DNA from: a virus
Lineage: Duplodnaviria; Heunggongvirae; Uroviricota; Caudoviricetes
Length of the DNA: 39,027 nt
Virus record (IMG/VR): IMGVR_UViG_2531839663_000007
Strand: one strand, 5' to 3'
The notes below the pieces were generated by a model. That model was given only the letters and a program-made list of their open reading frames with translations, ran no database searches and was not told where the DNA came from. Shown one piece after another: positions 1 to 14,494 of the stretch. Numbering within the stretch: position 1 is the first letter of the stretch; each line of letters starts with the position of its first letter. Made by a program: the position numbers and the translations under genes.

Positions 1-1053
1 TTACGGGGTAATGCCAACCGCTGCCGCCACTTTGTCGCCACTTGGCAGCGTTGCCAGAGGATTGAAACGGAGCGCCGTTTCCAGATGATCCGGTGCCAGA
101 TGTGCGTAACGCATAGTCATTTTTATATCGTGGTGTCCGAGAATTTTTTGTAAGGCCAGAATGTTTCCACCCGACATCATGAAGTGCGCCGCAAACGTAT
201 GGCGCAGAACGTGTGTGAGTTGACCGCGAGGGAGCACGATAGACGTTTTTTCCATCACGGATAAAAATTGAAAATAGCAGTCTGTGAAGAAATTGAACCC
301 ATCAAGCGCCATGATCTCTTCGTAAAGCTCTTTACTGATAGGGATGCTTCTGTTTTTCTTCCCCTTCGTTCTTACAAAGGTAATTCGGTATTTGGTCACC
401 TGTGAACGAGTAAGATTTACGGCTTCTCGCCAGCGTGCGCCTGTGCTTAAGCATATCTTAACTACCAGTGCCAGAATTGGGTCCTGACGTTTGCAATCAG
501 CCAGTAATTCAACAATCTGCTCATGGGTAAGCCATGCCATCTCTTTTTCTGCGATGGTGAATTTTCGCATGTTCTCCAGTGGGTTCGGATACGACCATTC
601 GCCCAGGCGGGATAGTTCGCTAAAAACACTACTTAGATAGCTTTGCTCCAGGTTAATGGTGACCGGGCTTGCTCCTTTCTTCCATTTCTCGCTGAAGTAG
701 ATCTCACCTGTCAGGCGTTTATCTCGATAGTGGGCAAACATTTTAGAGGTTAGATCAGTTGCAAGGGGATTGCCCAGAGCGTCAACCATCAGCAGCAATT
801 TGTCATAGACATGCTGCCCAGCTGTCAGTGATTTACCATGTAGTTTGAACCATAGCTCAACCACGTCTTTCAGTGTTCGACGATCCACTGATTCACCTAG
901 CCAGGGCTTTGCTTCGGTTTCTTCCATCGTGTGACGCTCAAAAGCCAGTGCTTCGCCTTTGGTGGCGAATTGTTTACGCACACGACGTCCACTACGTCCG
1001 GCGGGGTAACATTCGCAAAGCCATTTTCCTGTGGTGAGTTTTCGTACTGCCAT
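1..1053 (-). CDS. int: Tyrosine integrase (P2/186 Int family), 350 aa
   Basis: Full-length ORF; C-terminal region with HxxR and H..Y catalytic-type residues (LTHVLRHTFAAHF, MRYAHL); sits at prophage end next to repressor. Confidence 0.9.
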   Translation of the reverse strand: MAVRKLTTGKWLCECYPAGRSGRRVRKQFATKGEALAFERHTMEETEAKPWLGESVDRRTLKDVVELWFKLHGKSLTAGQHVYDKLLLMVDALGNPLATDLTSKMFAHYRDKRLTGEIYFSEKWKKGASPVTINLEQSYLSSVFSELSRLGEWSYPNPLENMRKFTIAEKEMAWLTHEQIVELLADCKRQDPILALVVKICLSTGARWREAVNLTRSQVTKYRITFVRTKGKKNRSIPISKELYEEIMALDGFNFFTDCYFQFLSVMEKTSIVLPRGQLTHVLRHTFAAHFMMSGGNILALQKILGHHDIKMTMRYAHLAPDHLETALRFNPLATLPSGDKVAAAVGITP

Positions 1054-1136: not shown

Positions 1137-2813
1137 CTAAGCAACATGTAGTTCATCGTTGGCGGAAGTGGCTGCTTTGCGTTCCTGCTCAATAGCTAGT
1201 GACTCTCTATATTCTTTCGCCTCTGCAAACATTGTCCAGTGGGCATTGATGTTCATATCTTCAATAACCGATTTAATTTCTTTAATATTTACGTTAAAAA
1301 ACTCTTTTCGTGAGTTAATTTTATTGACCTGCTTTTCGTTGAAGACTTTATGCAGATGATTTTCTAATGACGGTGCATCATCACTATAAATCATCGCATG
1401 AACATCGAACGAAAAAGGAACACTAGCATCCCCAAGTTCACGAACACGATCAAGTGGTTCAAGGCGGCGTGTCATTCCAATTTTATATACATCTTCGCCA
1501 AATGAGCCAATATTGCTAATTATATAAACATGGCCTGATCTAGTTTGTTGAGCCATAGAAATAGCTCGTTGGTTTTTAGCTTCAGCTTCTTCATATTTTA
1601 ACTGTAGTTCAGCTATTTTTTGCTCTAAAGCTAAGCGTTGTTCTTCATTTGCAAGCATAAGCTCTTTCGTTGCTTTATTTATAGCTTGCTGAATAGCTTT
1701 CTCTTCTTTTTCGGCTTCTTTTATCGCTTTTTCATACTCTCTACGAGCTCTTTCCTCTTCACGAAGCTGTTCTTTAATCCTTCTTTGCTCCTCTTTTTCT
1801 TCGAGCATAATTTCATTAACTGCTACACCCCATTTTAGCTCGTTGAGTCTTGCCTGAAGATAGATGTCACTTATTTTTGCGGACCTAAAGGCAGAGCCAT
1901 TGTAATTTACTAGTTGAAATGCATCTTTTATTTCTTGGGAAAGTTTTCCAAAATTGTTGTGTTTGACTTTTGATAAAATACTGTCAACTCTTCCATTGAA
2001 GGCATCCAAAACAAAGTTTATGGCAGTATTACGCCTGTTTTGCTCAACATAATCACACGAAGCAGCTTTATTAGTTTTTATTAATGATTTGGTTAACTCT
2101 CTGGCTTTTTGTAATTCCTTGCCTGCATCTGTAAATTCATAATTTTCTGCCAGCTCATCAAGTACACTACGGTTAGGGATGATCCATTCATCACCATAAC
2201 CTTCAATTTTATTTTTCATTGATTTTGCAACTGCTTCATATTTTTCTGCAAACTCTTTAGCTTCATATGCTGAACCAGCAATCTCCTTTGCTCTTTCTTC
2301 TGCATCAGAAATAATTTTTACTGCATTGTCATTAGCATTTGAGATTAGCTCATTTGCTTTATTATTAGCATTATCAAGACGTTCTTTGGCTTTCAGGCGT
2401 GCATCGCGAGCGTCTTTGGTGATTGCTATAGCTTCGCTATTAGCGTTGCTTATTGTCATCTGAGCTTGATAATTTGCTTCGTTTACTGTTTTAGCCGCCT
2501 TAATTTGGGCTTCATCTATTTTTTGCTTGGCTATTGAGTCCGCATTTTTTATCTTATTCTCTGCATCCATTACTGCGCTGTGCAATTCTTCGTATTGCCA
2601 CAATGGTGCTGCTCGCCCTTCAAGCTCTGATAATTCTCGTACGGTCTGTGCTAGTTTTTCTTGATTTTCAATCAGTTGGTTAGAAAGGGCTATGTTGTTA
2701 GCGGTCAGGTTATCTATAGCCGCTTTGTGTTTTTTACTTTGTTTAAATAATATTACAGCTAGAACAGGGGCGAGAAATGCTAATAAGAGTATAACGATGG
2801 CAAATGAATTCAT
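1137..2813 (-). CDS. Membrane-anchored coiled-coil protein with C-terminal T5orf172/MUG113 (GIY-YIG-like) domain, DUF4041-type architecture, 558 aa
   Basis: N-terminal hydrophobic helix (FAIVILLLAFLAPVLAVILF), long Ala/Lys/Glu-rich coiled-coil, C-terminal motif GHVYIISN..VYKIGMTRRLEPLDRVRELGDASVPFSFDVHAMIYSDDAPSLENHLH; AAGGA RBS; visibly AT-rich versus flanks. Confidence 0.75.
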   Translation of the reverse strand: MNSFAIVILLLAFLAPVLAVILFKQSKKHKAAIDNLTANNIALSNQLIENQEKLAQTVRELSELEGRAAPLWQYEELHSAVMDAENKIKNADSIAKQKIDEAQIKAAKTVNEANYQAQMTISNANSEAIAITKDARDARLKAKERLDNANNKANELISNANDNAVKIISDAEERAKEIAGSAYEAKEFAEKYEAVAKSMKNKIEGYGDEWIIPNRSVLDELAENYEFTDAGKELQKARELTKSLIKTNKAASCDYVEQNRRNTAINFVLDAFNGRVDSILSKVKHNNFGKLSQEIKDAFQLVNYNGSAFRSAKISDIYLQARLNELKWGVAVNEIMLEEKEEQRRIKEQLREEERARREYEKAIKEAEKEEKAIQQAINKATKELMLANEEQRLALEQKIAELQLKYEEAEAKNQRAISMAQQTRSGHVYIISNIGSFGEDVYKIGMTRRLEPLDRVRELGDASVPFSFDVHAMIYSDDAPSLENHLHKVFNEKQVNKINSRKEFFNVNIKEIKSVIEDMNINAHWTMFAEAKEYRESLAIEQERKAATSANDELHVA

Positions 2814-2833: not shown

Positions 2834-3430
2834 TTAATTCGAGACTATTGTACTTCTTATACAAGCAACCACTTCAATATCAGAAAATGCACATTCAAAG
2901 CTATTCTCTGCTGTTGTAATTTTAATCATTCCTTTAGGAAGCCTTGTGATTTTTCGAATGGAATAGGTTCCGTCGATATTGATTAACCAGTTTCCATCAA
3001 GTACTTCAGAAAATTTTTGATCACAAATGTATGTGACGAGTCCATCCTGAACAACAATTGGTGATGAAAGGTTTGCAGGAAGAAATGATGAATCGAAGAC
3101 ATATGAACCGTCTTCAATCATTTTGCCTGCGGCAAGGCGAAACTTAACAAGCTCTTCTGTAGCTGCTGTCAGCGAGCTTTGCTTAAGGCCTTGTCCGGTA
3201 GTTAACCATTTGAGGGAGGTTCCTGTTTCAAGAGCACATTGGATTATCCAGTCAGCAGGAAATGTATCCCGCAAATACCTGTTCGCTAGTGTGCTTTTTG
3301 ATACTTCCAAGTGATCAGCTAAAGCCTGTCGTGTCGTAAAGCCATAGGCTTCGACTAATCGCTCAATCGCAGCCTTACCACCTTTATTGGGATTTATTTT
3401 GATCTCACTTGGGTACTTTGATGTTGACAT
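2834..3430 (-). CDS. cI: CI-like immunity repressor (186 CI-type), 198 aa
   Basis: Recalled similarity to 186 CI (AYGF..NRY.R, ALETG..L.WL.TG, EC..D C-terminal region); position between int and divergent apl/cII. Confidence 0.8.
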   Translation of the reverse strand: MSTSKYPSEIKINPNKGGKAAIERLVEAYGFTTRQALADHLEVSKSTLANRYLRDTFPADWIIQCALETGTSLKWLTTGQGLKQSSLTAATEELVKFRLAAGKMIEDGSYVFDSSFLPANLSSPIVVQDGLVTYICDQKFSEVLDGNWLINIDGTYSIRKITRLPKGMIKITTAENSFECAFSDIEVVACIRSTIVSN

Positions 3431-5580: not shown

Positions 5581-6434
5581 GCACCATCCTGAAATGGGCG
5601 GGAAATAAAACCGCCATTATGCCAGAACTGAAAAAATACCTTCCTGCTGGCCCGCGACTGGTTGAACCTTTCGCGGGTTCCTGTGCTGTGATGATGGAAA
5701 CGGATTATCCCAGCTATCTGGTTGCGGATATTAATCCTGATTTAATCAACCTCTATAAAAAGGTTGCCGCTGATTGTGAATCGTTTATATCTCGCGCCAG
5801 AGTTTTATTTGAGATCGCAAACAGGGAGGTGGCTTATTACAACATAAGGCAGGAGTTTAACTGCTCAACTGAAATTACTGATTTCATGAAAGCGGTATAT
5901 TTCCTGTATCTCAATCGTCACGGTTACCGTGGTTTATGTCGCTATAACAAGAGCGGGCATTTCAACATTCCCTACGGTAATTATAAAAATCCGTATTTCC
6001 CTGAAAAAGAACTTCGCACATTTGCAGAAAAAGCCCAGCGAGCGACGTTTATCTGCGCCAGCTTTGATGAAACGCTGGCGATGTTGAAGGCGGGAGATGT
6101 GGTGTATTGCGATCCGCCATATGACGGTAAGTTTTCCGGCTATCACACTGATGGTTTCACTGAAGATGACCAGTATCACCTGGCATCCGTTCTTGAACAT
6201 CGGTCATCAGAAGGACATCCGGTCATTGTTTCTAACAGTGACACATCCCTGATCCGTTCGCTGTATCGCAATTTTACTCACCACTATATCAAGGTAAAAC
6301 GCAGCATCGGTGTGGCAGCTGGCGAGGGTAAATCAGCAACAGAAATCATTGCTGTTTCCGGGCCGCGCTGCTGGATGGGATTTGATTATTCGCGTGGCGT
6401 GGATAGTTCTGCCGTGTACGGAGTACGTGCATGA
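5577..6434 (+). CDS. dam: DNA N6-adenine methyltransferase (Dam-like, D12 class), 285 aa
   Basis: N-terminal LKWAGNK and FAGS motifs, catalytic DPPY (VYCDPPYDG); ATGA overlaps at both ends. Confidence 0.85.
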
Positions 6435-8845
6435 GTCATGCCGATATGAACAACTGCTGCGGCTTTAACGAGGCTGCCGCAGCATTCTCATGGAACAGCC
6501 CGAAAAAGGCCATTAACCCTTATCTGGACCCGGCGGAAGTTGCGCCGGTTTCTACGCTTTCAAACCTGATCACTCTGTACGCTGCCGATAACGAGCAGGA
6601 ACAGTTGCGCCGCGAGGCACTGAGTGATCAGGTCTGGGAGCGTTATTTCTTTAATGAATCACGTGATCCTGTCCAGCGCGAAATGGAGCAGGATAAGCTC
6701 ATTAGCCGGGCAAAGCTGGCGCATGAGCAGCAGCGTTTTAATTCAGACATGGTCATTCTGGCGGACGTCAACGCCCAGCCTTCCCATATCAGCAAGCCGC
6801 TGATGCAACGTATTGAATACTTCAGCAGCCTGGGCAGGCCAAAGGCTTATTCCCGCTATTTACGTGAGACGATTAAGCCATGTCTGGAACGACTGGAGCA
6901 TGTACGCGACAGTCAGCTATCTGCATCTTTTCGCTTTATGGCAAGCCATGAAGGGCTGGACGGCCTGCTGATCCTGCCTGAAATGAGTCAGGATCAGGTG
7001 AAACGCCTGTCCACCCTGGTAGCTGCGCATATGAGTATGTGCCTTGATGCAGCTTGTGGTGATTTGTATGCCACCGATGACGTTAAGCCAGAAGAAATCC
7101 GCAAGACATGGGAAAAGGTGGCAGCGGAAACCCTGCGTCTGGATGTCATCCCACCTGCGTTTGAGCAACTCCGTCGGAAAAGAAACCGCCGTAAACCCGT
7201 GCCCTATGAACTCATTCCGGGTTCGCTGGCGCGTATGTTGTGCGCCGACTGGTGGTATCGGAAATTATGGAAGATGCGTTGCGAATGGCGGGAAGAGCAG
7301 TTGCGCGCTGTTTGCCTGGTCAGCAAAAAAGCATCTCCTTATGTCAGCTATGAAGCCGTGATGCATAAACGTGAGCAGCGTCGTAAGTCGCTGGAGTTTT
7401 TCCGTTCTCATGAACTGGTGAACGAAGACGGCGACACGCTGGACATGGAGGATGTGGTAAACGCCAGCAGCAGCAACCCTGCGCATCGCCGCAATGAGAT
7501 GATGGCCTGTGTTAAAGGTCTGGAGCTTATCGCGGAAATGCGCGGTGACTGCGCCGTTTTCTACACTATCACCTGTCCGTCGCGTTTCCATTCCACGCTA
7601 AATAACGGCAGACCAAACCCGACCTGGACAAACGCGACGGTAAGACAAAGCAGCGATTATCTGGTCGGTATGTTTGCTGCATTTCGTAAGGCGATGCACA
7701 AAGCCGGGTTGCGCTGGTATGGCGTGCGGGTGGCTGAGCCGCATCATGATGGCACAGTTCACTGGCACCTGTTGTGTTTCATGCGCAAAAAAGACCGCCG
7801 TGCCATCACTGCATTACTGCGTAAGTTTGCCATCCGTGAAGACCGCGAGGAGCTGGGCAATAACACTGGGCCGCGCTTTAAGTCTGAGTTGATTAACCCG
7901 CGCAAAGGAACGCCGACAAGCTACATCGCGAAATATATCAGTAAGAACATTGACGGTCGTGGTCTGGCTGGCGAGATCAGCAAGGAAACGGGTAAATCTC
8001 TGCGTGATAACGCTGAATACGTGAATGCCTGGGCGTCTCTGCATCGTGTTCAGCAATTCCGCTTCTTTGGTATTCCGGGGCGTCAGGCTTACCGTGAACT
8101 TCGCTTGCTGGCTGGTCAGGCGGCAAGGCAACAGGGTGACAAAAAAGCAGGTGCGCCGGTACTGGATAACCCGCGTCTTGATGCCATTCTGGCTGCTGCT
8201 GATGCTGGTTGTTTTGCCACCTACATCATGAAGCAGGGCGGCGTACTGGTTCCCCGTAAATATCACCTCATCAGAACCGCTTATGAAATCAACGAAGAGC
8301 CGACCGTCTATGGCGATCACGGCATTCGTATTTATGGCATCTGGTCACCCATTGCAGAGGGCAAGATCTGCACTCATGCAGTGAAGTGGAAAATGGTTCG
8401 TAAAGCCGTTGACGTTCAGGAGGCGGCAGCCGACCAGGGCGCTTGCGCCCCTTGGACTCGTGGCAATAACTGTCCCCTTGCTGAAAATTTGAACCAACAG
8501 GAGAAAGATAAATCAGCTGATGGGGACCCCAGAACGGACATTACCCGCATGGATGACAAGGTGTTGCACGATTACCTGCACAGTATGAACAAAAAGGAGC
8601 GCCGGGAATTGGCTGCAAGGTTACGTCTGGTGAAACCGAAACGGCGTAGAGACTACAAACAGCGAATTACAGACCATCAACGACAGCAGCTCGTCTATGA
8701 ACTGAAATCCAGAGGATTTGATGGCAGCGAGAAAGAGGTCGATTTACTCCTTCGCGGCGGCAGTATTCCGTCAGGAGCAGGCCTGCGTATCTTCTATCGG
8801 AACCAGCGTTTGCAGGAAGATGATAAGTGGCGGAACCTGTATTAA
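6431..8845 (+). CDS. A: Replication initiation endonuclease (P2 gpA-like rolling-circle initiator), 804 aa
   Basis: Large protein after early operon with HUH-type motif (VHWHLL) and [10 protein letters not shown]-like region; position as in P2/186. Confidence 0.85.
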
Positions 8846-8937
8846 TTACGCTGGTTAACAATTCGTGCTCTTAATAATACCAGGCATATCAGGCTGATAA
8901 GCGTAAAAAAACGTTTTACATCAGTAAGATTATTATA

Positions 8938-8957
8938 TACTGTAAATATAAACAGTG
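8938..8957. promoter_or_regulatory. LexA (SOS) box TACTGTAAATATAAACAGTG
   Basis: CTGT-N8-ACAG with AT-rich spacer, about 40 bp upstream of ATG 8999; adjacent half-site ending ACAG at 8967-8970. Confidence 0.55.
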
Positions 8958-8998
8958 GTTATACATACAGTATTGCGTGTGGTGTCATAGGAGGAAAG

Positions 8999-9187
8999 AT
9001 GCAGGACTATTTTTTGGAGTCTTTGAAGCTCCAGCGCATTGATTTTTTTCTTAAGCTTGTAGCGGCTAGTGAGTGTAGTGATGAAGAGAAGGGGCTGGCT
9101 CTGCAGTGGGTTTCTGAATTGACTGATGAACTCATGGCAAAAATCAGAAGCCACGAATACAACCGCTCAATGGATGTCATCAACTGA
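8999..9187 (+). CDS. Small SOS-regulated protein, possibly the N-terminal part of a Tum-like antirepressor, 62 aa
   Basis: Strong RBS GGAGGAAAG; downstream of LexA box; followed by DinI-like ORF as in 186 tum. Confidence 0.5.
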   Translation: MQDYFLESLKLQRIDFFLKLVAASECSDEEKGLALQWVSELTDELMAKIRSHEYNRSMDVIN

Positions 9188-9197
9188 GGTAACTTTT

Positions 9198-9431
9198 ATG
9201 CGCATTGAAATAATGATCGATAAAGAGCAGAAGATTAGCCAGTCTACCCTGGACGCCCTTGAATCCGAGCTTTACCGCAATCTGCGCCCCCTGTATCCCA
9301 AAACGGTAATCCGTATCCGTAAAGGTAGCTCTAACGGTGTGGAACTGACCGGACTGCAACTGGACGAAGAAAGAAAACAAGTGATGAAAATTATGCAGAA
9401 GGTGTGGGAAGACGACAGCTGGCTGCATTGA
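9198..9431 (+). CDS. DinI-family protein, 77 aa
   Basis: MRIEIMIDKEQ...VWEDDSWL resembles E. coli DinI (MRIEVTIAK...TWESADDWF); GAGGT RBS. Confidence 0.7.
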   Translation: MRIEIMIDKEQKISQSTLDALESELYRNLRPLYPKTVIRIRKGSSNGVELTGLQLDEERKQVMKIMQKVWEDDSWLH

Positions 9432-9485
9432 TTTTGTCAATAGACGCTTGTTTTTACTAATCAAAAAGGGTTACATATGAGTGAG

Positions 9486-9518
9486 AGGCGATGTCAATCA
9501 GATATCGCCTTGTTTTTT
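9486..9518 (+). terminator. Rho-independent terminator after the DinI-like gene
   Basis: Stem AGGCGAT/ATCGCCT with 11-nt loop followed by TGTTTTTT. Confidence 0.6.
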
Positions 9519-9544
9519 GTCAAGAAAAGAATAATAGGCTAAAA

Positions 9545-10222
9545 ATGAAAATTAATAATGTAGCGTTACCAATATCTCTTGCTGTAATCCTAACTGGTTG
9601 CGTGCCACATGCTTCTAACCGAAATATCACTGCTATTGAAGTGGTGAAGCCTGCTATTGGGCAAAGTGCTACCGCCTACATGGGCGATCCCATTATCACA
9701 TCTGCTACTGGATTTAAAACGGACGTACTAGAACTTGGTGCGGCTAATGGTGCATTGTCTTCTATCGCTGCTGGTACATATTGCAGTGAGGGGAATGGAA
9801 TTTACCGCAATTATCATAACCCTCAAGCTGTTGCGTTAAAAAATCTCTATGGGCAAATCGGTAACTATGTTGATTATGTTAGTTACGATGCTGCAAAAAA
9901 TGAGATATCACCGCCAAATGGTACTTCTTATACTGCATCAGAAATTTCTATCAAACGTGTTCCTGATGGGCTGTGTCGAGTTAGTAACTCATTGGTTAAG
10001 ACTATCGAATACAATGGAAATGCAGGCGGTGTAATGAAGTTCACCTATCGTGAATTTGCAAACGATATGGCTCGTGCAGCATTTACAACAGATTTTTCTG
10101 TAGATTCTAAGGGAAGTGACGTTATCGCTTACAAAGGTGCCAAGTTCAAAGTGAACAAGGCTGATAACTCGTCTATTTCTTATACAATTATTTCTGGCTT
10201 TGACAAGGCTGTCACGTTCTAG
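9545..10222 (+). CDS. Lipoprotein of unknown function (moron), 225 aa
   Basis: Signal peptide with lipobox LTGC (MKINNVALPISLAVILTGC); flanked by terminators; reduced GC. Confidence 0.7.
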   Translation: MKINNVALPISLAVILTGCVPHASNRNITAIEVVKPAIGQSATAYMGDPIITSATGFKTDVLELGAANGALSSIAAGTYCSEGNGIYRNYHNPQAVALKNLYGQIGNYVDYVSYDAAKNEISPPNGTSYTASEISIKRVPDGLCRVSNSLVKTIEYNGNAGGVMKFTYREFANDMARAAFTTDFSVDSKGSDVIAYKGAKFKVNKADNSSISYTIISGFDKAVTF

Positions 10223-10493: not shown

Positions 10494-11558
10494 ATGGCAG
10501 AAAACGGACCTCGTGAAGACTTGGCGAAGCTGGTGTCCCATAAACTATTGGAAAGATTTAAGTGGAAGCAACACGGTCCGACCGATCATGATTTTCCGTG
10601 TACTGAACAAGAATTACACAAGCCAGCGGAAAAAACGCAAGACCACACACATCCAGTTGATATTGTCTTTCATTATAAAGATCCTTACTTAAATAAAATT
10701 GTTTATCTAAATACTGATTTGAAAAGTTATTCAAAAGGGTCTTTAAATTCTAAAATGGTTGAAAATGCTTTAGATTCCTTAGCAAAAACTATTCATTGTG
10801 CGCAGAATAGTCAGGTATGGAAAAGTCGCTATGAGACAACCATGTCTAAAAGTGAAGTACGAGGGTTACTTTTTGTATATAATCATGATAATGACTATAA
10901 GCATAATTTCTATGACTATTTTTATCCTCCTAAACCCAAAAAAGGGAAAAGACCTGCGGCAGTTAATTTAGACAGAGTAAATGTATCTGAAAATCAGCAA
11001 ATACATATAATTGAGCCACGAACTATTAGTTATCTTATGTCTGTTGTTGCTGATATGAACGAAATGATTGCGGAAAATAAATTCCCGCGTGATGATTATG
11101 GGTTCTATTATCCTCAATTAATACTTCATAAGGTTGTGACTGCAGAAGAATATCTTCCAGCTACAGTGGAAACTCTAACATCCCCCTACATGATAATTAA
11201 ACATGGTCCAGTAATAGAATATAATAGAGCTAAAAAGGAGGACGAGCTGGTTTATCCTGAAGGGTTTATTGTTTATTACAACCGCTCCGGTAAAACAGAC
11301 TTAGAGTTTAATTATTTATTAGATACTCTAGCTAACTACCAGATATTAAACTCAAAAAATAATATTAGAATTAGAGTAGCATGTATTGATAAAAGTGAGC
11401 ACATACGGACTAATTTTATAAAAGCTATAGAAAAATTTTCATATCAGTGGGGATATGATGAATCTATGAAGGAAAAATTATTATCTATTGAGCTATATAT
11501 TGTGCCTCTATCTCGAGAGCAATATTTAACAGAAGAAAGATCATGGGATGTTAAATAA
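10494..11558 (+). CDS. Unrecognised protein, gene 1 of three-gene cargo operon, 354 aa
   Basis: AAAGGAGAA RBS 7 nt upstream; AT-rich; possible PD-(D/E)xK-like motif (PVDIVFHYKD...YLNTDLK) is inference only. Confidence 0.75.
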   Translation: MAENGPREDLAKLVSHKLLERFKWKQHGPTDHDFPCTEQELHKPAEKTQDHTHPVDIVFHYKDPYLNKIVYLNTDLKSYSKGSLNSKMVENALDSLAKTIHCAQNSQVWKSRYETTMSKSEVRGLLFVYNHDNDYKHNFYDYFYPPKPKKGKRPAAVNLDRVNVSENQQIHIIEPRTISYLMSVVADMNEMIAENKFPRDDYGFYYPQLILHKVVTAEEYLPATVETLTSPYMIIKHGPVIEYNRAKKEDELVYPEGFIVYYNRSGKTDLEFNYLLDTLANYQILNSKNNIRIRVACIDKSEHIRTNFIKAIEKFSYQWGYDESMKEKLLSIELYIVPLSREQYLTEERSWDVK

Positions 11559-12634
11559 TGAGTGAAATACACAGTGTTACAGACAAAGCTTTATACGAGG
11601 CTTTATGCCAATCACGTGTCACTGATAATGATATGGTGGAATTGTTTTTATCCCGTGGAATTTTGGTGTCAAAAAAAACTGAGCGTAAGCAACTAGCAAA
11701 AAATTTCTCAAAGCTCACTCATGATTATTATTTGCATCAGAAAATTTCTGGAATATTTGGAGGTTTTTTAAGGCGAGAGAAATCTACGGCTATAGTTATT
11801 AAGAATAATATTGATAAGCCACTACTTGTTAAGGCTGCTAATAAGCTTAAAGATCAGCTGGAAAGCGAAGATGATATATGTCATGTAATCAGTGATAAAG
11901 ATTTTATTAAAATTAGCATTACATACTTATCAACCAATTTTGGTAAAAGTGAATTTAACCAAGTAGAGAAGAAAACTGCTGTTTTTGAAATCGAGTCCCT
12001 TTCGGATGGTTTTTCAATTCGTAGGCCTGATAGTGAACAAGCTGAGATTTATAATAAAAAACTACTAAGTATTATCGAACAGGTTATACAAAAGGAAAAA
12101 GATATAGAAGCAACGACTTTAGATACAGAAGAAATCAACCTCGCGAACATCGATGACGCAGATAAAAGAACAGAATTTTTTAAGCGGCTCATCAATGGGT
12201 TGGATGGATATGTTTTAGATGATGTTACGGATGTTTATATCTACCATCCTAAACCTGCTGTCATGGAGGAGGAAGATGGGGATTCTGAAACAGGAATACA
12301 TATTAGCAAAGCATCTTTGAAAGGAGAGGGGGTGCTTAAATCTGAAGAGTTGAATTCTTTGTATGATAGAGGGTTTTATATTTGGAAAATAAGATGGAGA
12401 ATAAAGGATAAATCTACTACTCCAGATCTTTATGATTTTGAAGCTCAGTTTAGTGATCCTTTAGAGTTTAAGAGCTTTTCATATATTTCTAGAGGGGTGA
12501 GGAAATATAAAGGTGCCGGAGAATATAATAAAAATCCGAGCCAATTACCGGATGATGAAGAATATCATTTTAAAAGACTTATTGAAAAAACGGCGCGTTC
12601 AATTATAATGGATATTAATAAAGAGTATGAGTGA
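11558..12634 (+). CDS. Unrecognised acidic protein, gene 2 of three-gene cargo operon, 358 aa
   Basis: Start overlaps stop of gene 1 (TAATG); AT-rich; no Walker A or other motif recognised. Confidence 0.75.
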   Translation: MSEIHSVTDKALYEALCQSRVTDNDMVELFLSRGILVSKKTERKQLAKNFSKLTHDYYLHQKISGIFGGFLRREKSTAIVIKNNIDKPLLVKAANKLKDQLESEDDICHVISDKDFIKISITYLSTNFGKSEFNQVEKKTAVFEIESLSDGFSIRRPDSEQAEIYNKKLLSIIEQVIQKEKDIEATTLDTEEINLANIDDADKRTEFFKRLINGLDGYVLDDVTDVYIYHPKPAVMEEEDGDSETGIHISKASLKGEGVLKSEELNSLYDRGFYIWKIRWRIKDKSTTPDLYDFEAQFSDPLEFKSFSYISRGVRKYKGAGEYNKNPSQLPDDEEYHFKRLIEKTARSIIMDINKEYE

Positions 12635-12642
12635 GATAACAA

Positions 12643-13347
12643 ATGAAAACACTGGATAAAATTAAGTGGAGCAGAGTGAAGTTATCAATAACCTTCTCTG
12701 AACTAATTGATTATTTTAAACGTAATTCTTATGATGAAAGTAAAGGTTATGGTTATACTTTTGTGAATTTTACTGAACATGAAGTTTCCGCTTCTTATGT
12801 TGAAAAGTCATTGCGTACAGAAGTTATTGTATCGCCCGCGGGAGATGAGATAGAACAAGATTTTTTAGAGTATGAAACCATAAAATTTGCATTAAAGCCC
12901 GTATCTAAAAATCTCTCTTTATTGGCTATTTTTAATCCCCCTAAATCTATAAAGAAATTGACGGATAGACTTAGTGTAGATTTCAATTATAGGGTTGGAT
13001 TTGGTTCAATTACCTTAAATTTAAAGGAGTATATAAATTATCTAAGTTTACAGCATTCAATAAGTCTATTACATATTGATAAAATTAAAGTTAGCAATGT
13101 TGTGTTAAATGGGAACTCCAAGGCCTCGGTTGAGATAACTTCCACAAAAAATGCATTGTTAGAGCTAGAAAGTATTTTTACTAACAAAAAATATAATATA
13201 GATAAAGTTAGGTTGCATTGTTTGATTTACGGGGAACCTTCTTTTGTTGAGCTTTCAAAAAGCGCTTTTATTAATTCAGATTCTAATCATCTGGATTTTT
13301 ACTCCGACTTCCTCATTCAGCAATTATCTAATGATGAATTTCGTTAA
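12643..13347 (+). CDS. Unrecognised protein, gene 3 of three-gene cargo operon, 234 aa
   Basis: Starts 8 bp after gene 2; AT-rich; followed by hairpin. Confidence 0.75.
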   Translation: MKTLDKIKWSRVKLSITFSELIDYFKRNSYDESKGYGYTFVNFTEHEVSASYVEKSLRTEVIVSPAGDEIEQDFLEYETIKFALKPVSKNLSLLAIFNPPKSIKKLTDRLSVDFNYRVGFGSITLNLKEYINYLSLQHSISLLHIDKIKVSNVVLNGNSKASVEITSTKNALLELESIFTNKKYNIDKVRLHCLIYGEPSFVELSKSAFINSDSNHLDFYSDFLIQQLSNDEFR

Positions 13348-13453: not shown

Positions 13454-14494
13454 TTAAGTTGCCTTTTCAAGCTTGTAAGGGATAAAACGTATAATCTCGT
13501 GGCCGAGCCAGCAGTTAAGCTCCATTATTAGCTTCTGTAGTGGCAATAATTCATTCCTTACAAATACATTACTTGCCTTCTCCACATCCCCAAACCCCCC
13601 AACATTATTCGGCATAATCCCCATCATTTGCGGCGGCACACGATGCGCCGCCATCATGTCGTCCCGGCTTACGTTCTTGATGTTCAGAAACTCATCCTTT
13701 GCCGCCACTTCTGACAGCGGGATGATCTGAAGCCCGTCCTTTTTGCCGTTAGGCGAGTACATAAACAGGTTGCGGAAGTTGCCCGGACCTTTGGCGCTTT
13801 TCATCGCGTTGCGGAGGTTGTTCACATCCTCCTGGTTCTGAGCGGCATCGGTCATGTACATTATGAATCCTGCATGGCTGCCATTAATATAATATTTGCG
13901 TCGGAACAGCGTGGCGGACTCGTTGAGCAGGGCTGACGGAATGGCAGAAAGATAGCCGGGCAGGCCGTAGATCTCCTGGTTGATATCGGGTTCCATCAGA
14001 TGAAAGATGCTGCCTTTCGTGAACTGATACGGCTGGGTTGTCATACCGTATTGCACAAACCAGTAGGTATCCAGGTCTAACCCGCGTCGGGTGTATTTTG
14101 CCAGAGCAGGCTCAAGGGCGATAACTTCACCGAAGCGGTTCGTGCGTTTCTCCAGGTAGGCGTTACCAAATACCAGATAGTCCTGCACAAAACGTGAAAA
14201 AGCCTGCTGGCTAAGCAGCGGGTGAGGGATGTAGGTGCTGGTTAGAATGTTGCATTTCACTGCAATGGGTGAGCTGTGATGCACGGCGGCGCGGAAGGTT
14301 CGCGCCAGTCCGTCAAAGCTGACGGGCGGCTCATACCAACGGTCCATCTGTACGCATTCCACATAGTCCAGTAATTCTCGGCGGTCCAGTACTGGAATGG
14401 GATCGCCGAAGCTGAATGCTTCGGCTGAAGTCTGGCTTTTATGCTGGGTCTGGTTCTGCGACGCAGCGCGGTTCTTCTTACTCTTTCCCATCAA
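13454..14494 (-). CDS. Q: Portal protein (P2 gpQ-like), 346 aa
   Basis: Size and position; ATGA overlap with terminase large subunit. Confidence 0.85.
   Translation of the reverse strand: MMGKSKKNRAASQNQTQHKSQTSAEAFSFGDPIPVLDRRELLDYVECVQMDRWYEPPVSFDGLARTFRAAVHHSSPIAVKCNILTSTYIPHPLLSQQAFSRFVQDYLVFGNAYLEKRTNRFGEVIALEPALAKYTRRGLDLDTYWFVQYGMTTQPYQFTKGSIFHLMEPDINQEIYGLPGYLSAIPSALLNESATLFRRKYYINGSHAGFIMYMTDAAQNQEDVNNLRNAMKSAKGPGNFRNLFMYSPNGKKDGLQIIPLSEVAAKDEFLNIKNVSRDDMMAAHRVPPQMMGIMPNNVGGFGDVEKASNVFVRNELLPLQKLIMELNCWLGHEIIRFIPYKLEKAT

Follow-up and report, generated by a model that had tools for sequence, protein, structure and literature searches.

The window (the whole stretch of DNA analysed, 39,027 nt) is a P2/186-family, Fels-2-like prophage with a 186-type CI repressor. 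After its replication gene gpA (6431-8845), where phage 186 carries p95-tum, lie a LexA box, a 62-aa open reading frame (ORF1, tumA) and a 77-aa DinI-like open reading frame (ORF2, tumB), all three at the positions given by the first-pass annotation of this DNA. The synteny of the gpA-tum region is shared with 186, Fels-2 and PSP3. The features are as follows:

8915..8920, plus strand: putative -35 hexamer TTTACA of a p95-like SOS promoter (read from the sequence; 17 bp upstream of TACTGT)
8938..8957, no strand assigned: LexA (SOS) box TACTGTAAATATAAACAGTG, whose left half is also the putative -10 hexamer TACTGT (8938-8943)
8953..8972, no strand assigned: degenerate second LexA-like site CAGTGGTTATACATACAGTA, right half intact, left half degenerate
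8989..8994, plus strand: Shine-Dalgarno AGGAGG of tumA (read from the sequence; 4 nt before ATG 8999)
8999..9187, plus strand: tumA, putative antirepressor gene, 62 aa, related by profile homology to the N-terminal domain of Tum
9186..9189, plus strand: Shine-Dalgarno GAGG of the DinI-like gene (read from the sequence; 8 nt before ATG 9198)
9198..9431, plus strand: tumB, dinI-like gene, 77 aa (Pfam DinI, phrog_189)
9485..9521, plus strand: intrinsic-terminator-like hairpin and T-run (11-pair stem with 5 GC pairs, then GTTTTTTGTC)
2834..3430, minus strand: cI, 186-type immunity repressor and presumed TumA target (Pfam Phage_CI_repr and Phage_CI_C)

The first-pass annotation had described a CTGT-N8-ACAG motif about 40 bp upstream of a 62-aa ORF with a strong ribosome-binding site, and both observations hold: the box ends 41 nt before the ATG, and the AGGAGG stands at its place in front of it. 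We scanned the whole window with the 20-mer consensus TACTGTATATATATACAGTA, allowing up to three mismatches and using 100 shuffles as control. The sole match is the box at 8938-8957, with 17 of its 20 letters as in the consensus; none of the shuffles yields a match. The CTGT-N8-ACAG core by itself is weak evidence: it occurs once in the window against a chance expectation of 0.46, and 39 of the 100 shuffles contain at least one. Conservation adds to this result. Across a comparative set of 33 species-level related loci (16 with both genes intact), 25 carry a perfect core 20-77 nt upstream of the ORF1 start and a further six carry it with one mismatch, the remaining two being a contig end and a pseudogene, which indicates that the box is more than a chance match. 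It is also conserved upstream of tumA in Fels-2 and PSP3, and its position is kept across Escherichia, Citrobacter, Enterobacter, Serratia, Pantoea, Tatumella and Erwinia loci even though synonymous sites of the adjacent gene are saturated there (dS about 1.3).

The promoter of the locus is probably of the p95 type. The annotated layout of p95 in 186 is TTCACA, 18 bp, TACTGT, and that of the window would be TTTACA, 17 bp, TACTGT. A consensus promoter scan did not flag this promoter and found no strong sigma-70 site there, because the -10 agrees at only three of six positions; the two hexamers are therefore assigned by analogy with 186. As expected of a 186 Tum-type antirepressor gene, tumA has a LexA box that overlaps its putative promoter. 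In a MAFFT alignment the right half of the degenerate site CAGTGGTTATACATACAGTA falls on the corresponding half of the 186 LexA box, and one relative (L018) has 7/8 of the core at the equivalent position; a functional role for this second site is putative and uncertain.

The product of ORF1 belongs to phrog_698 (profile search, E 9.7e-38) and cross-matches phrog_8554 (1.1e-8) and phrog_1993 (0.002). The N-terminus of 186 Tum matches all three of these families, phrog_698 among them in register at E 5.9e-6. An hhalign comparison of the ORF1 family with 186 Tum is likewise in register (residues 1-62 against 1-63, E 5e-4, with a probability of only 32%), and the comparison with PSP3 TumA alone is weak (E 0.078). 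The proposed similarity of the 62-aa ORF to the Tum N-terminus thus fails by BLASTP, which gives no alignment with 186 Tum, and is recovered by profile comparison at a remote level. With profile E-values from 1e-8 to 5e-4 and about 21% identity, ORF1 appears to be a remote but consistent homologue of the N-terminal, non-DinI part of 186 Tum. Pfam and NCBIfam contain no family for ORF1, and a PDB sequence search with it found nothing. The AlphaFold2 model of TumA, computed from an alignment of database proteins, is a two-helix hairpin (pLDDT 89), for which Foldseek against BFVD returned generic helical hairpins only, none at E <= 0.001. Literature searches found no published biochemistry for the phrog_698 family and nothing relevant under the names TumA and TumB.

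The gene is under strong purifying selection (median dN/dS 0.07 over 29 orthologues, 27 of them with defined dS), and 30 of the 33 related loci have it as an ORF of 61-63 aa. TumA is 98% identical to ECHS_RS04495 of E. coli HS (61 of 62 residues) and to STM2728 of Fels-2. On the opposite strand, a 73-aa ORF (8933-9154, minus strand) was rejected as a shadow ORF; stop codons interrupt it in four of the five relatives checked.

The DinI-like identity of the 77-aa ORF is confirmed by Pfam DinI (PF06183), which matches ORF2 along its full 63-position profile (E 6.6e-23) with 81.3 bits, where the gathering threshold is 24.2. ORF2 also matches phrog_189 (profile positions 71-148) and the solved DinI structure 1GHH (E 2.7e-6, residues 1-75), and it contains the acidic C-terminal motif WEDDSW. 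It is identical to the Fels-2 and E. coli HS proteins (77/77 in HS), 78% identical to PSP3 TumB and 41% identical to residues 71-145 of 186 Tum, the C-terminal half of that protein. Its score is below the equivalog cut-off for chromosomal DinI (NCBIfam NF007893, 42.7 vs 111 bits). By these sequence comparisons ORF2 is a phage DinI-like paralogue of the TumB type and not an orthologue of host dinI. By analogy with DinI, and with products noted in the 186 record as one that 'modulates SOS induction', it may bind RecA filaments and modulate the SOS response. In Gifsy prophages, deletions of dinI homologues did not significantly affect induction (PMC3121763).

The two genes had been described as overlapping out of frame. 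This is so for the longest reading of ORF2, which starts at ATG 9126, has 101 aa and overlaps the last 62 nt of ORF1 (9126-9187), and does not apply to ATG 9198, which Fels-2 and E. coli HS have as their annotated start and which leaves the genes 10 nt apart. The GAGG in front of this start overlaps the tumA stop codon TGA (9185-9187). The hairpin that follows the DinI-like gene sits at the position equivalent to that of the partial terminator t95a directly after tum in 186, and may act as a terminator. Further downstream, the 243-codon ORF at 9491-10222 is a lipoprotein gene that starts at 9545. Its equal length had made it a candidate homologue of 186 orf97, which was ruled out (E 4.5); the gene downstream of tum in 186 is unrelated to that of the window.

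The single fused ORF of 186, with 146 aa, is not found in the window: ORF1 stops at 9185-9187 and the new start at 9198 lies in another frame. The same split is annotated as tumA/tumB in PSP3 and is also present in Fels-2 and E. coli HS, and of 5,426 complete E. coli genomes about 1,100, roughly a fifth, carry the locus. All 16 intact orthologous pairs have an intergenic gap of 9-12 nt, with a relative frame of 0 in five loci, +1 in four and +2 in seven, and in relatives stop codons interrupt the upstream extension of the ORF2 frame. In 13 of the 33 loci the LexA box and tumA stand without any DinI-like gene, and in another four the DinI-like gene is broken, which makes the first gene the conserved core of the locus.

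Among the closest known systems, Fels-2 (Felsduovirus) has STM2728 and STM2726.1 in a locus of 97.2% DNA identity. Its two genes measure 189 and 234 nt, as here, and it agrees with the window in the 10-nt gap, in the relative frame and in the lipoprotein gene that follows; its CI is 41.5% identical to that of the window. Bunny et al. (2002), as cited in PMC3121763, are the primary source for the split tum of Fels-2 and for lexA-null lethality. In PSP3, a LexA box TACTGTATAAATATACAGTA is followed by tumA (60 aa) and a DinI-like tumB (77 aa), annotated as 'similar to 5' end 186 tum; UV induction of prophage' and 'similar to dinI and 3' end of 186 tum', respectively. PSP3 differs from the window in that its TumA is about 22% identical to ORF1 and belongs to PHROG 1993 and not 698, a link by profile only; that its box stands about 21 nt from the ATG, as opposed to 41 nt; and that its two genes share one frame, separated by TAG and one codon, whereas those of the window are in different frames. 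PMC3121763 describes tum as split in both Fels-2 and PSP3 and places the antirepressor activity of PSP3 in the upstream gene. The published wording 'split by a stop codon' is literally true for PSP3 only, as the genes of Fels-2 and of the window also differ in frame.

Phage 186 itself has p95-tum after gene A, an annotated LexA site overlapping the p95 -10 TACTGT, a terminator after the gene, a CI target of the same type, and the same domain order, N-terminal antirepressor followed by DinI-like part. The difference is that both domains are fused in one Tum, although translation from an internal GTG, preceded by a Shine-Dalgarno of its own, also yields the DinI-like part alone, where the window has a separate gene. 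Tum of 186 is known to bind CI and to keep it from its operators (cited in PMC3121763 and PMC7708051), and repression is restored once the SOS signal decays (PMC7708051). A similar operon logic is found in Gifsy-1, -2 and -3 (GfoA, GftA and GfhA), where a small operon behind a LexA box encodes a DinI homologue together with a small antirepressor, which binds a non-cleavable repressor and thereby inactivates it (PMC3121763). Unlike the window, these lambdoid prophages have dinI first and a repressor of another family; the likeness is one of operon logic, and no homology of their antirepressors to ORF1 is claimed.

The repressor of the window fits this type of switch. Its only reported families are Phage_CI_repr (8.1e-32) and Phage_CI_C (3.5e-27), indicating that it has no autocleavage domain of the LexA/S24 type, and it is 32% identical to 186 CI. 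The window therefore presents the tum locus after gpA in a P2/186-family prophage together with a 186-type CI that lacks such a domain.

The genetic evidence comes from DuoHS, a prophage of E. coli HS whose 651-bp tum-dinI locus (ECHS_RS04495 and ECHS_RS04500) has 99.1% DNA identity to the window and shares its LexA box, spacing and flanking gpA; DuoHS differs in its CI allele and in its downstream cargo genes. As reported in PMC12055606 (2025), in-frame deletion of ECHS_RS04495 ('tum') abolished mitomycin C lysis and virion foci, and lexA(Ind-) separately had the same effect. The deletion fused the start and stop codons of tum and retained the DinI-like gene with its ribosome-binding site; the published primers map to 8979-9001 and 9185-9207 of the window. 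A polar effect of the deletion is formally conceivable, the text consulted describing no complementation. The result would carry over to the window by homology of TumA and not of the TumA-CI pair, since the two CI proteins are 55% identical overall (74% in the N-terminal and 41% in the C-terminal domain). The arrangement of tumA and a DinI-like gene is accordingly already known and was genetically tested in a near-identical E. coli prophage, so that the finding is correct and ordinary; our own observations concern sequence features, homology, conservation and selection.

Taken together, we consider it highly probable (about 0.9) that the locus is the DNA-damage switch of a Fels-2/186-type prophage, in which a LexA-repressed promoter controls two genes, the antirepressor gene tumA and the DinI-like one behind it. 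Synteny, the 186-type CI, the homology to Tum and the DuoHS genetics support what the first-pass annotation suggested, a 186-like switch induced in an SOS-dependent manner. In the lysogen, host LexA bound to the box, which overlaps the -10 of the p95-like promoter, would silence the short operon. Upon DNA damage, activated RecA would promote self-cleavage of LexA and the operon would be transcribed. TumA, a predicted 62-aa helical hairpin, would then act as antirepressor by binding directly to the non-self-cleaving 186-type CI of the window, which would lose its hold on the lytic promoter so that the prophage enters lytic growth. Since CI would be sequestered and not destroyed, this step should be reversible on restoration of LexA. 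The DinI-like protein, translated from its own ribosome-binding site, most likely modulates the activity of RecA filaments and hence the strength or duration of the SOS signal, and would be an accessory and not the inducer.

The first-pass annotation had left two options, a natural pair of genes or a frameshifted tum, and the comparative data decide for the former. A single tum broken by a pseudogene-forming frameshift or a sequencing error, leaving the prophage unable to respond to SOS, is suggested by the 146-aa Tum of 186, which spans both domains, and by the different frames of ORF1 and ORF2, the latter being open back to 9126 inside the end of ORF1. A single lesion does not explain a near-constant gap with varying frame in 16 loci, a split that recurs in Fels-2, PSP3, E. 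coli HS and about 1,100 E. coli genomes, a second gene with its own Shine-Dalgarno and ATG, stop codons in the upstream extension of relatives, a dN/dS of 0.07 in ORF1, or the inducibility reported for DuoHS, which is itself split. Most relatives lack a single continuous ORF, and we regard this reading as refuted and its probability as negligible. The fused form in 186 and the 62-nt overlap of frames could equally be invoked for a programmed ribosomal frameshift or stop-codon readthrough, by which some fused Tum would be the active antirepressor. Such recoding would have to differ among orthologues (readthrough, +1 or +2) as the frame varies, the overlap frame is closed in relatives, inspection by eye of 9126-9187 reveals no slippery heptamer of the canonical X XXY YYZ form, and 13 loci keep the box and tumA with no DinI-like gene to be joined; it is extremely improbable.

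The DinI-like protein might instead be the real inducer, for example via RecA or CI, with the 62-aa ORF as an accessory or leader peptide. Only ORF2 has clear pairwise similarity to 186 Tum, and databases label the whole of 186 Tum as a DinI-type protein. This proposal is very unlikely, as induction of DuoHS was lost when the 62-aa gene alone was deleted, antirepressor activity in PSP3 resides in the upstream gene, 17 of the 33 loci lack an intact DinI-like gene while 30 have tumA as a 61-63-aa ORF, and the 186 record notes C-terminal-only products as modulators and not antirepressors. Finally, the box could be fortuitous and both genes constitutive or lytic-phase 'moron' genes unrelated to induction; the expected frequency of the bare core and the lack of a strong sigma-70 site in the promoter scan agree with this. 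The absence of the full 20-mer from all shuffles, the conserved position of the box across seven genera despite synonymous saturation, and the block of induction of near-identical DuoHS by lexA(Ind-) (PMC12055606) argue against a chance match and leave it scarcely credible.

The LexA-controlled antirepressor switch indicates how this prophage wakes: induction should follow the SOS response by way of LexA and an antirepressor, and should be reversible and leave CI uncleaved, which is relevant for predicting phage release under DNA-damaging antibiotics. There is also a gain for annotation, since RefSeq calls tumA a 'hypothetical protein', some records misname it 'levan regulatory protein', and neither Pfam nor NCBIfam has a model for it, even though roughly one complete E. 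coli genome in five carries the gene and genetic evidence exists for it.

Two minor points are new. One is the loss or disruption of the DinI-like gene in 17 of the 33 species-level loci; the other is that divergent CI alleles accompany a nearly invariant TumA. TumA is 97-98% identical across Escherichia, Salmonella and Klebsiella prophages whose CI repressors are only 41-55% identical to one another, with 53-74% identity in their DNA-binding N-terminal domain against 25-52% in the C-terminal one. We raise, as a tentative and rather doubtful extension, that TumA of this type is a broad-specificity antirepressor. Should it recognise the conserved N-terminal domain of CI, Fels-2-like prophages of different immunity that share a host could all be induced by a single TumA made in the SOS response. 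On this view the DinI-like gene would be dispensable as a partner, given its loss in about half of the species-level loci. The contrast between a nearly invariant TumA and divergent CI alleles offers a cheap, testable lead on cross-induction among P2-family prophages.

The window is a P2/186-family prophage. In phage 186, the annotated SOS operon lies at the same site as here, directly after gene A, and comprises the promoter p95, a LexA site over its -10 element TACTGT, tum, the partial terminator t95a and orf97. The corresponding features of the window are as follows.

1-1053, minus strand: integrase
2834-3430, minus strand: 186-type CI (Pfam Phage_CI_repr and Phage_CI_C, with no other family; 32% identity to 186 CI)
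after CI, plus strand: apl/cII-like ORFs
6431-8845: gpA replication gene
8915-8920 (TTTACA), 17 bp, 8938-8943 (TACTGT): putative promoter, by analogy with the layout of 186 p95
8938-8957: LexA box TACTGTAAATATAAACAGTG, read from the sequence
8989-8994: AGGAGG, ribosome-binding site of ORF1, read from the sequence
8999 (ATG) to 9185-9187 (TGA), plus strand: ORF1 (tumA), 62 codons
9186-9189: GAGG, ribosome-binding site of ORF2, overlapping the ORF1 TGA, read from the sequence
9198 (ATG) to 9431, plus strand: ORF2 (tumB, DinI-like), 77 codons
9485-9511: terminator-like hairpin followed by a T-run, at the position of 186 t95a

The box, the reading frames and the ribosome-binding site stand as described in the first-pass annotation. 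The overlap it reported between ORF1 and ORF2 requires the earliest ATG, at 9126; a start at the ATG at 9198, where the gene is annotated to begin in Fels-2 and E. coli HS and which is served by a separate ribosome-binding site, leaves a gap of 10 nt. Across the 651 bp around the locus, identity is 97-98% with Klebsiella phage 4LV2017 and related phages, Salmonella phage Fels-2 and RE2010, and 99.1-99.8% with the E. coli chromosomes that match best, strain HS included. This stretch is detected in 1,125 of 5,426 complete E. coli genomes.

The 20-mer of the LexA box agrees with the consensus TACTGTATATATATACAGTA at 17 of 20 positions; it is the sole such match in the 39 kb and is reached in none of 100 shuffles. 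The bare CTGT-N8-ACAG core is common by chance (0.46 expected per window, present in 39 of 100 shuffles). By analogy with 186, we infer a p95-like promoter whose -10 element lies under the box. A consensus promoter scan did not flag this promoter upstream of ORF1 because its -10 element agrees at only three of six positions. A degenerate second LexA-like site, CAGTGGTTATACATACAGTA (8953-8972), starts inside the 3' end of the canonical box; ACAGTA, the right half of this second site, is kept in Fels-2 and aligned with the 186 box, and one relative (L018) has a 7-of-8 core at the equivalent position. In Pantoea and Erwinia relatives, as in 186 and PSP3, the sole box lies about 20 nt from the ATG, as opposed to 41-49 nt.

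ORF1 is a genuine gene. Compared with 29 orthologues from other species its median dN is 0.089 and its median dS 1.27 (saturated), and the 27 orthologues with a defined dS give a median dN/dS of 0.07. The antisense ORF opposite it is interrupted by stops in four of the five relatives checked. ORF1 has no match in Pfam, NCBIfam or PDB. As regards its alignment to 186 Tum, BLASTP yields nothing, and the relationship becomes visible in profile searches. These place ORF1 as a full-length member of phrog_698 (E 9.7e-38), with further matches to phrog_8554 (1.1e-8) and phrog_1993 (0.002); the first 70 residues of 186 Tum match the same three families (phrog_1993, 1.5e-23; phrog_8554, 3.4e-12; phrog_698, 5.9e-6), Tum residues 6-44 falling on phrog_698 profile positions 6-44, and PSP3 TumA is a phrog_1993 member. 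When 19 ORF1 orthologues were compared with 186 Tum by hhalign, residues 1-62 paired with Tum 1-63 (E 5e-4), with a probability of only 32% from a low-diversity alignment; in a multiple alignment, a Cys and an Ala-Leu pair are conserved at matching positions. These profile data indicate that the homology of ORF1 to the Tum N-terminal domain is real but remote. AlphaFold2 models ORF1 as a hairpin of two helices, residues 2-23 and 28-61 (pLDDT 89), whose turn holds the invariant Cys26; a fold search of this model against viral models was uninformative.

ORF2 is clearly a DinI-family protein, scoring 81.3 bits against Pfam DinI (cut-off 24.2), matching the solved DinI structure 1GHH at E 2.7e-6 and sharing 41% identity with 186 Tum residues 71-145. 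The Fels-2 and HS proteins have the same sequence (100% identity), and PSP3 TumB is 78% identical. With 42.7 bits ORF2 falls well under the cut-off of 111 for the NCBIfam chromosomal DinI equivalog, and is therefore a phage DinI-like paralogue rather than the host gene.

The two reading frames had been proposed to be either a natural two-gene arrangement or a single tum broken by a frameshift. We compared 33 loci, each from a different species, that encode an ORF1 relative. ORF1 is 61-63 aa long in 30 of them, and a LexA box lies 20-77 nt upstream, with a perfect core in 25 loci and one core mismatch in 6; of the two without a box, one ends at a contig end (only 53 nt of upstream sequence) and the other is a frameshifted pseudogene. 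In the 16 loci where both genes are intact, the gap is constantly 9-12 nt while the relative frame is 0 in five, +1 in four and +2 in seven, and the upstream extension of the ORF2 frame contains stops in relatives. A frameshifted single tum is rejected on these grounds, as is a conserved recoding signal, which would not produce a constant gap with a varying frame. The locus therefore consists of two adjacent genes, possibly with coupled translation, as is also annotated in PSP3.

The DinI-like partner is dispensable. Its gene is absent from 13 of the 33 loci (L009, L011, L018, L023, L028-L035 and L037) and disrupted by a stop or frameshift in four (L010, L019, L022 and L036); 12 of the 13 loci that lack it retain a LexA-like box and a tumA of full or nearly full length, the exception being L035, with a tumA pseudogene and no box. 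This loss or disruption of the gene, in 17 of 33 species-level loci altogether, goes slightly beyond what we found in print.

The locus is of a known kind, its form having been described for PSP3 and Fels-2 and validated genetically in DuoHS, the E. coli HS prophage. The PSP3 record describes tumA, which has a canonical LexA box upstream, as 'similar to 5' end 186 tum; UV induction of prophage' and tumB as 'similar to dinI and 3' end of 186 tum'. Previous work noted that 186 Tum resembles an antirepressor fused to DinI (Lemire et al. 2011, PMC3121763), that the tum region is divided in two in Fels-2 and PSP3 (PMC3121763, citing Bunny, Liu and Roth 2002, whose title places the Fels-2 prophage behind lexA-null lethality in Salmonella), and that the PSP3 antirepressor activity resides in the upstream gene (PMC3121763). 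Unlike in 186, the antirepressor and DinI-like domains are unfused here, the antirepressor domain is highly divergent (about 21% identity) and the downstream gene encodes a lipoprotein unrelated to orf97.

The proposed SOS-dependent induction is supported by the nearly identical DuoHS locus, where an in-frame 'tum' deletion and, separately, a lexA(Ind-) allele each abolished mitomycin C-induced lysis and virion formation (Phollow paper, PMC12055606). Induction in a lexA(Ind-) background was among the checks called for in the first-pass annotation. The deleted gene, for which the supplementary data of that paper give primers, is ECHS_RS04495, a 189-nt ORF in HS whose product is identical to ORF1 at 61 of 62 residues. 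The deletion primer junctions map to 8979-9001 and 9185-9207 of the window; therefore only the 62-aa gene was deleted, and the DinI-like gene and its ribosome-binding site were kept. This experimentally supported antirepressor gene is named 'hypothetical protein' in RefSeq E. coli genomes; some phage records and UniRef misname ORF1 orthologues 'levan regulatory (domain) protein', and several gene callers lengthen them to 87-109 aa.

We propose that LexA would sit on the box over the -10 element of the p95-like promoter and be removed upon DNA damage, whereupon TumA would build up and sequester the 186-type CI, which has no autocleavage domain, so derepressing the lytic promoter. This step may be reversible when LexA returns, as shown in 186 (PMC7708051). 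For the DinI-like protein, the probable but unproven role is to tune the activity of RecA filaments. The 186 record notes the equivalent C-terminal products as modulators of SOS induction. Against such a role, dinI deletions in Gifsy prophages had no significant effect on induction (PMC3121763).

Also slightly beyond what we found in print, this type of TumA is nearly invariant, whereas its presumed target CI is not. TumA identity is 97-98% across DuoHS, Fels-2, the Klebsiella 4LV2017 type and RE2010, and tumA DNA occurs in 1,101 of 5,426 E. coli genomes (at least 95% identity in 1,052 records), whereas megablast detects the window cI allele in only 171 E. coli genomes. In phages whose tum locus matches at 97-98% identity, CI is only 41-51% identical to that of the window, and DuoHS CI reaches 55%. 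Among five CIs from prophages carrying this tum locus (window, DuoHS, Fels-2, Kp4871-2 and RE2010), the N-terminal HTH domains share 53-74% identity and the C-terminal domains 25-52% (64-74% and 28-41%, respectively, against the window's). This contrast suggests either that the antirepressor has broad specificity or that the module reassorts freely. The better conservation of the N-terminal domain hints, speculatively, that TumA recognises this part of CI and might act across immunity types.

Beyond the terminator, the lipoprotein gene (9491-10222, plus strand; true start probably 9545) encodes a phrog_1353 product that starts MKINNVALPISLAVILTGC, with a lipobox, and is also found in Fels-2 and E. 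coli HS. The terminator hairpin overlaps a spurious upstream extension of this ORF. The lipoprotein gene lies where 186 has orf97, and its maximal ORF equally has 243 codons; homology to orf97 is rejected, the sequences being unrelated. Three successive genes at 10494-13347 on the plus strand (354, 358 and 234 aa), lying after the tum/DinI operon and before the portal gene (13454-14494, minus strand), match PADLOC Hp1, Hp2 and Hp3 (E 2.7e-62, 7.9e-40 and 3.1e-14), the first also weakly matching NCBIfam GapS4a. These models are those of '3HP', the three-hypothetical-protein anti-phage system known from cargo hotspots of P2. The second defence cargo of the prophage is a gene of 558 aa (1137-2813, minus strand) between the integrase and cI that matches the defence protein PD-Lambda-1 (E 2.2e-119), with DUF4041 and T5orf172/MUG113 domains.
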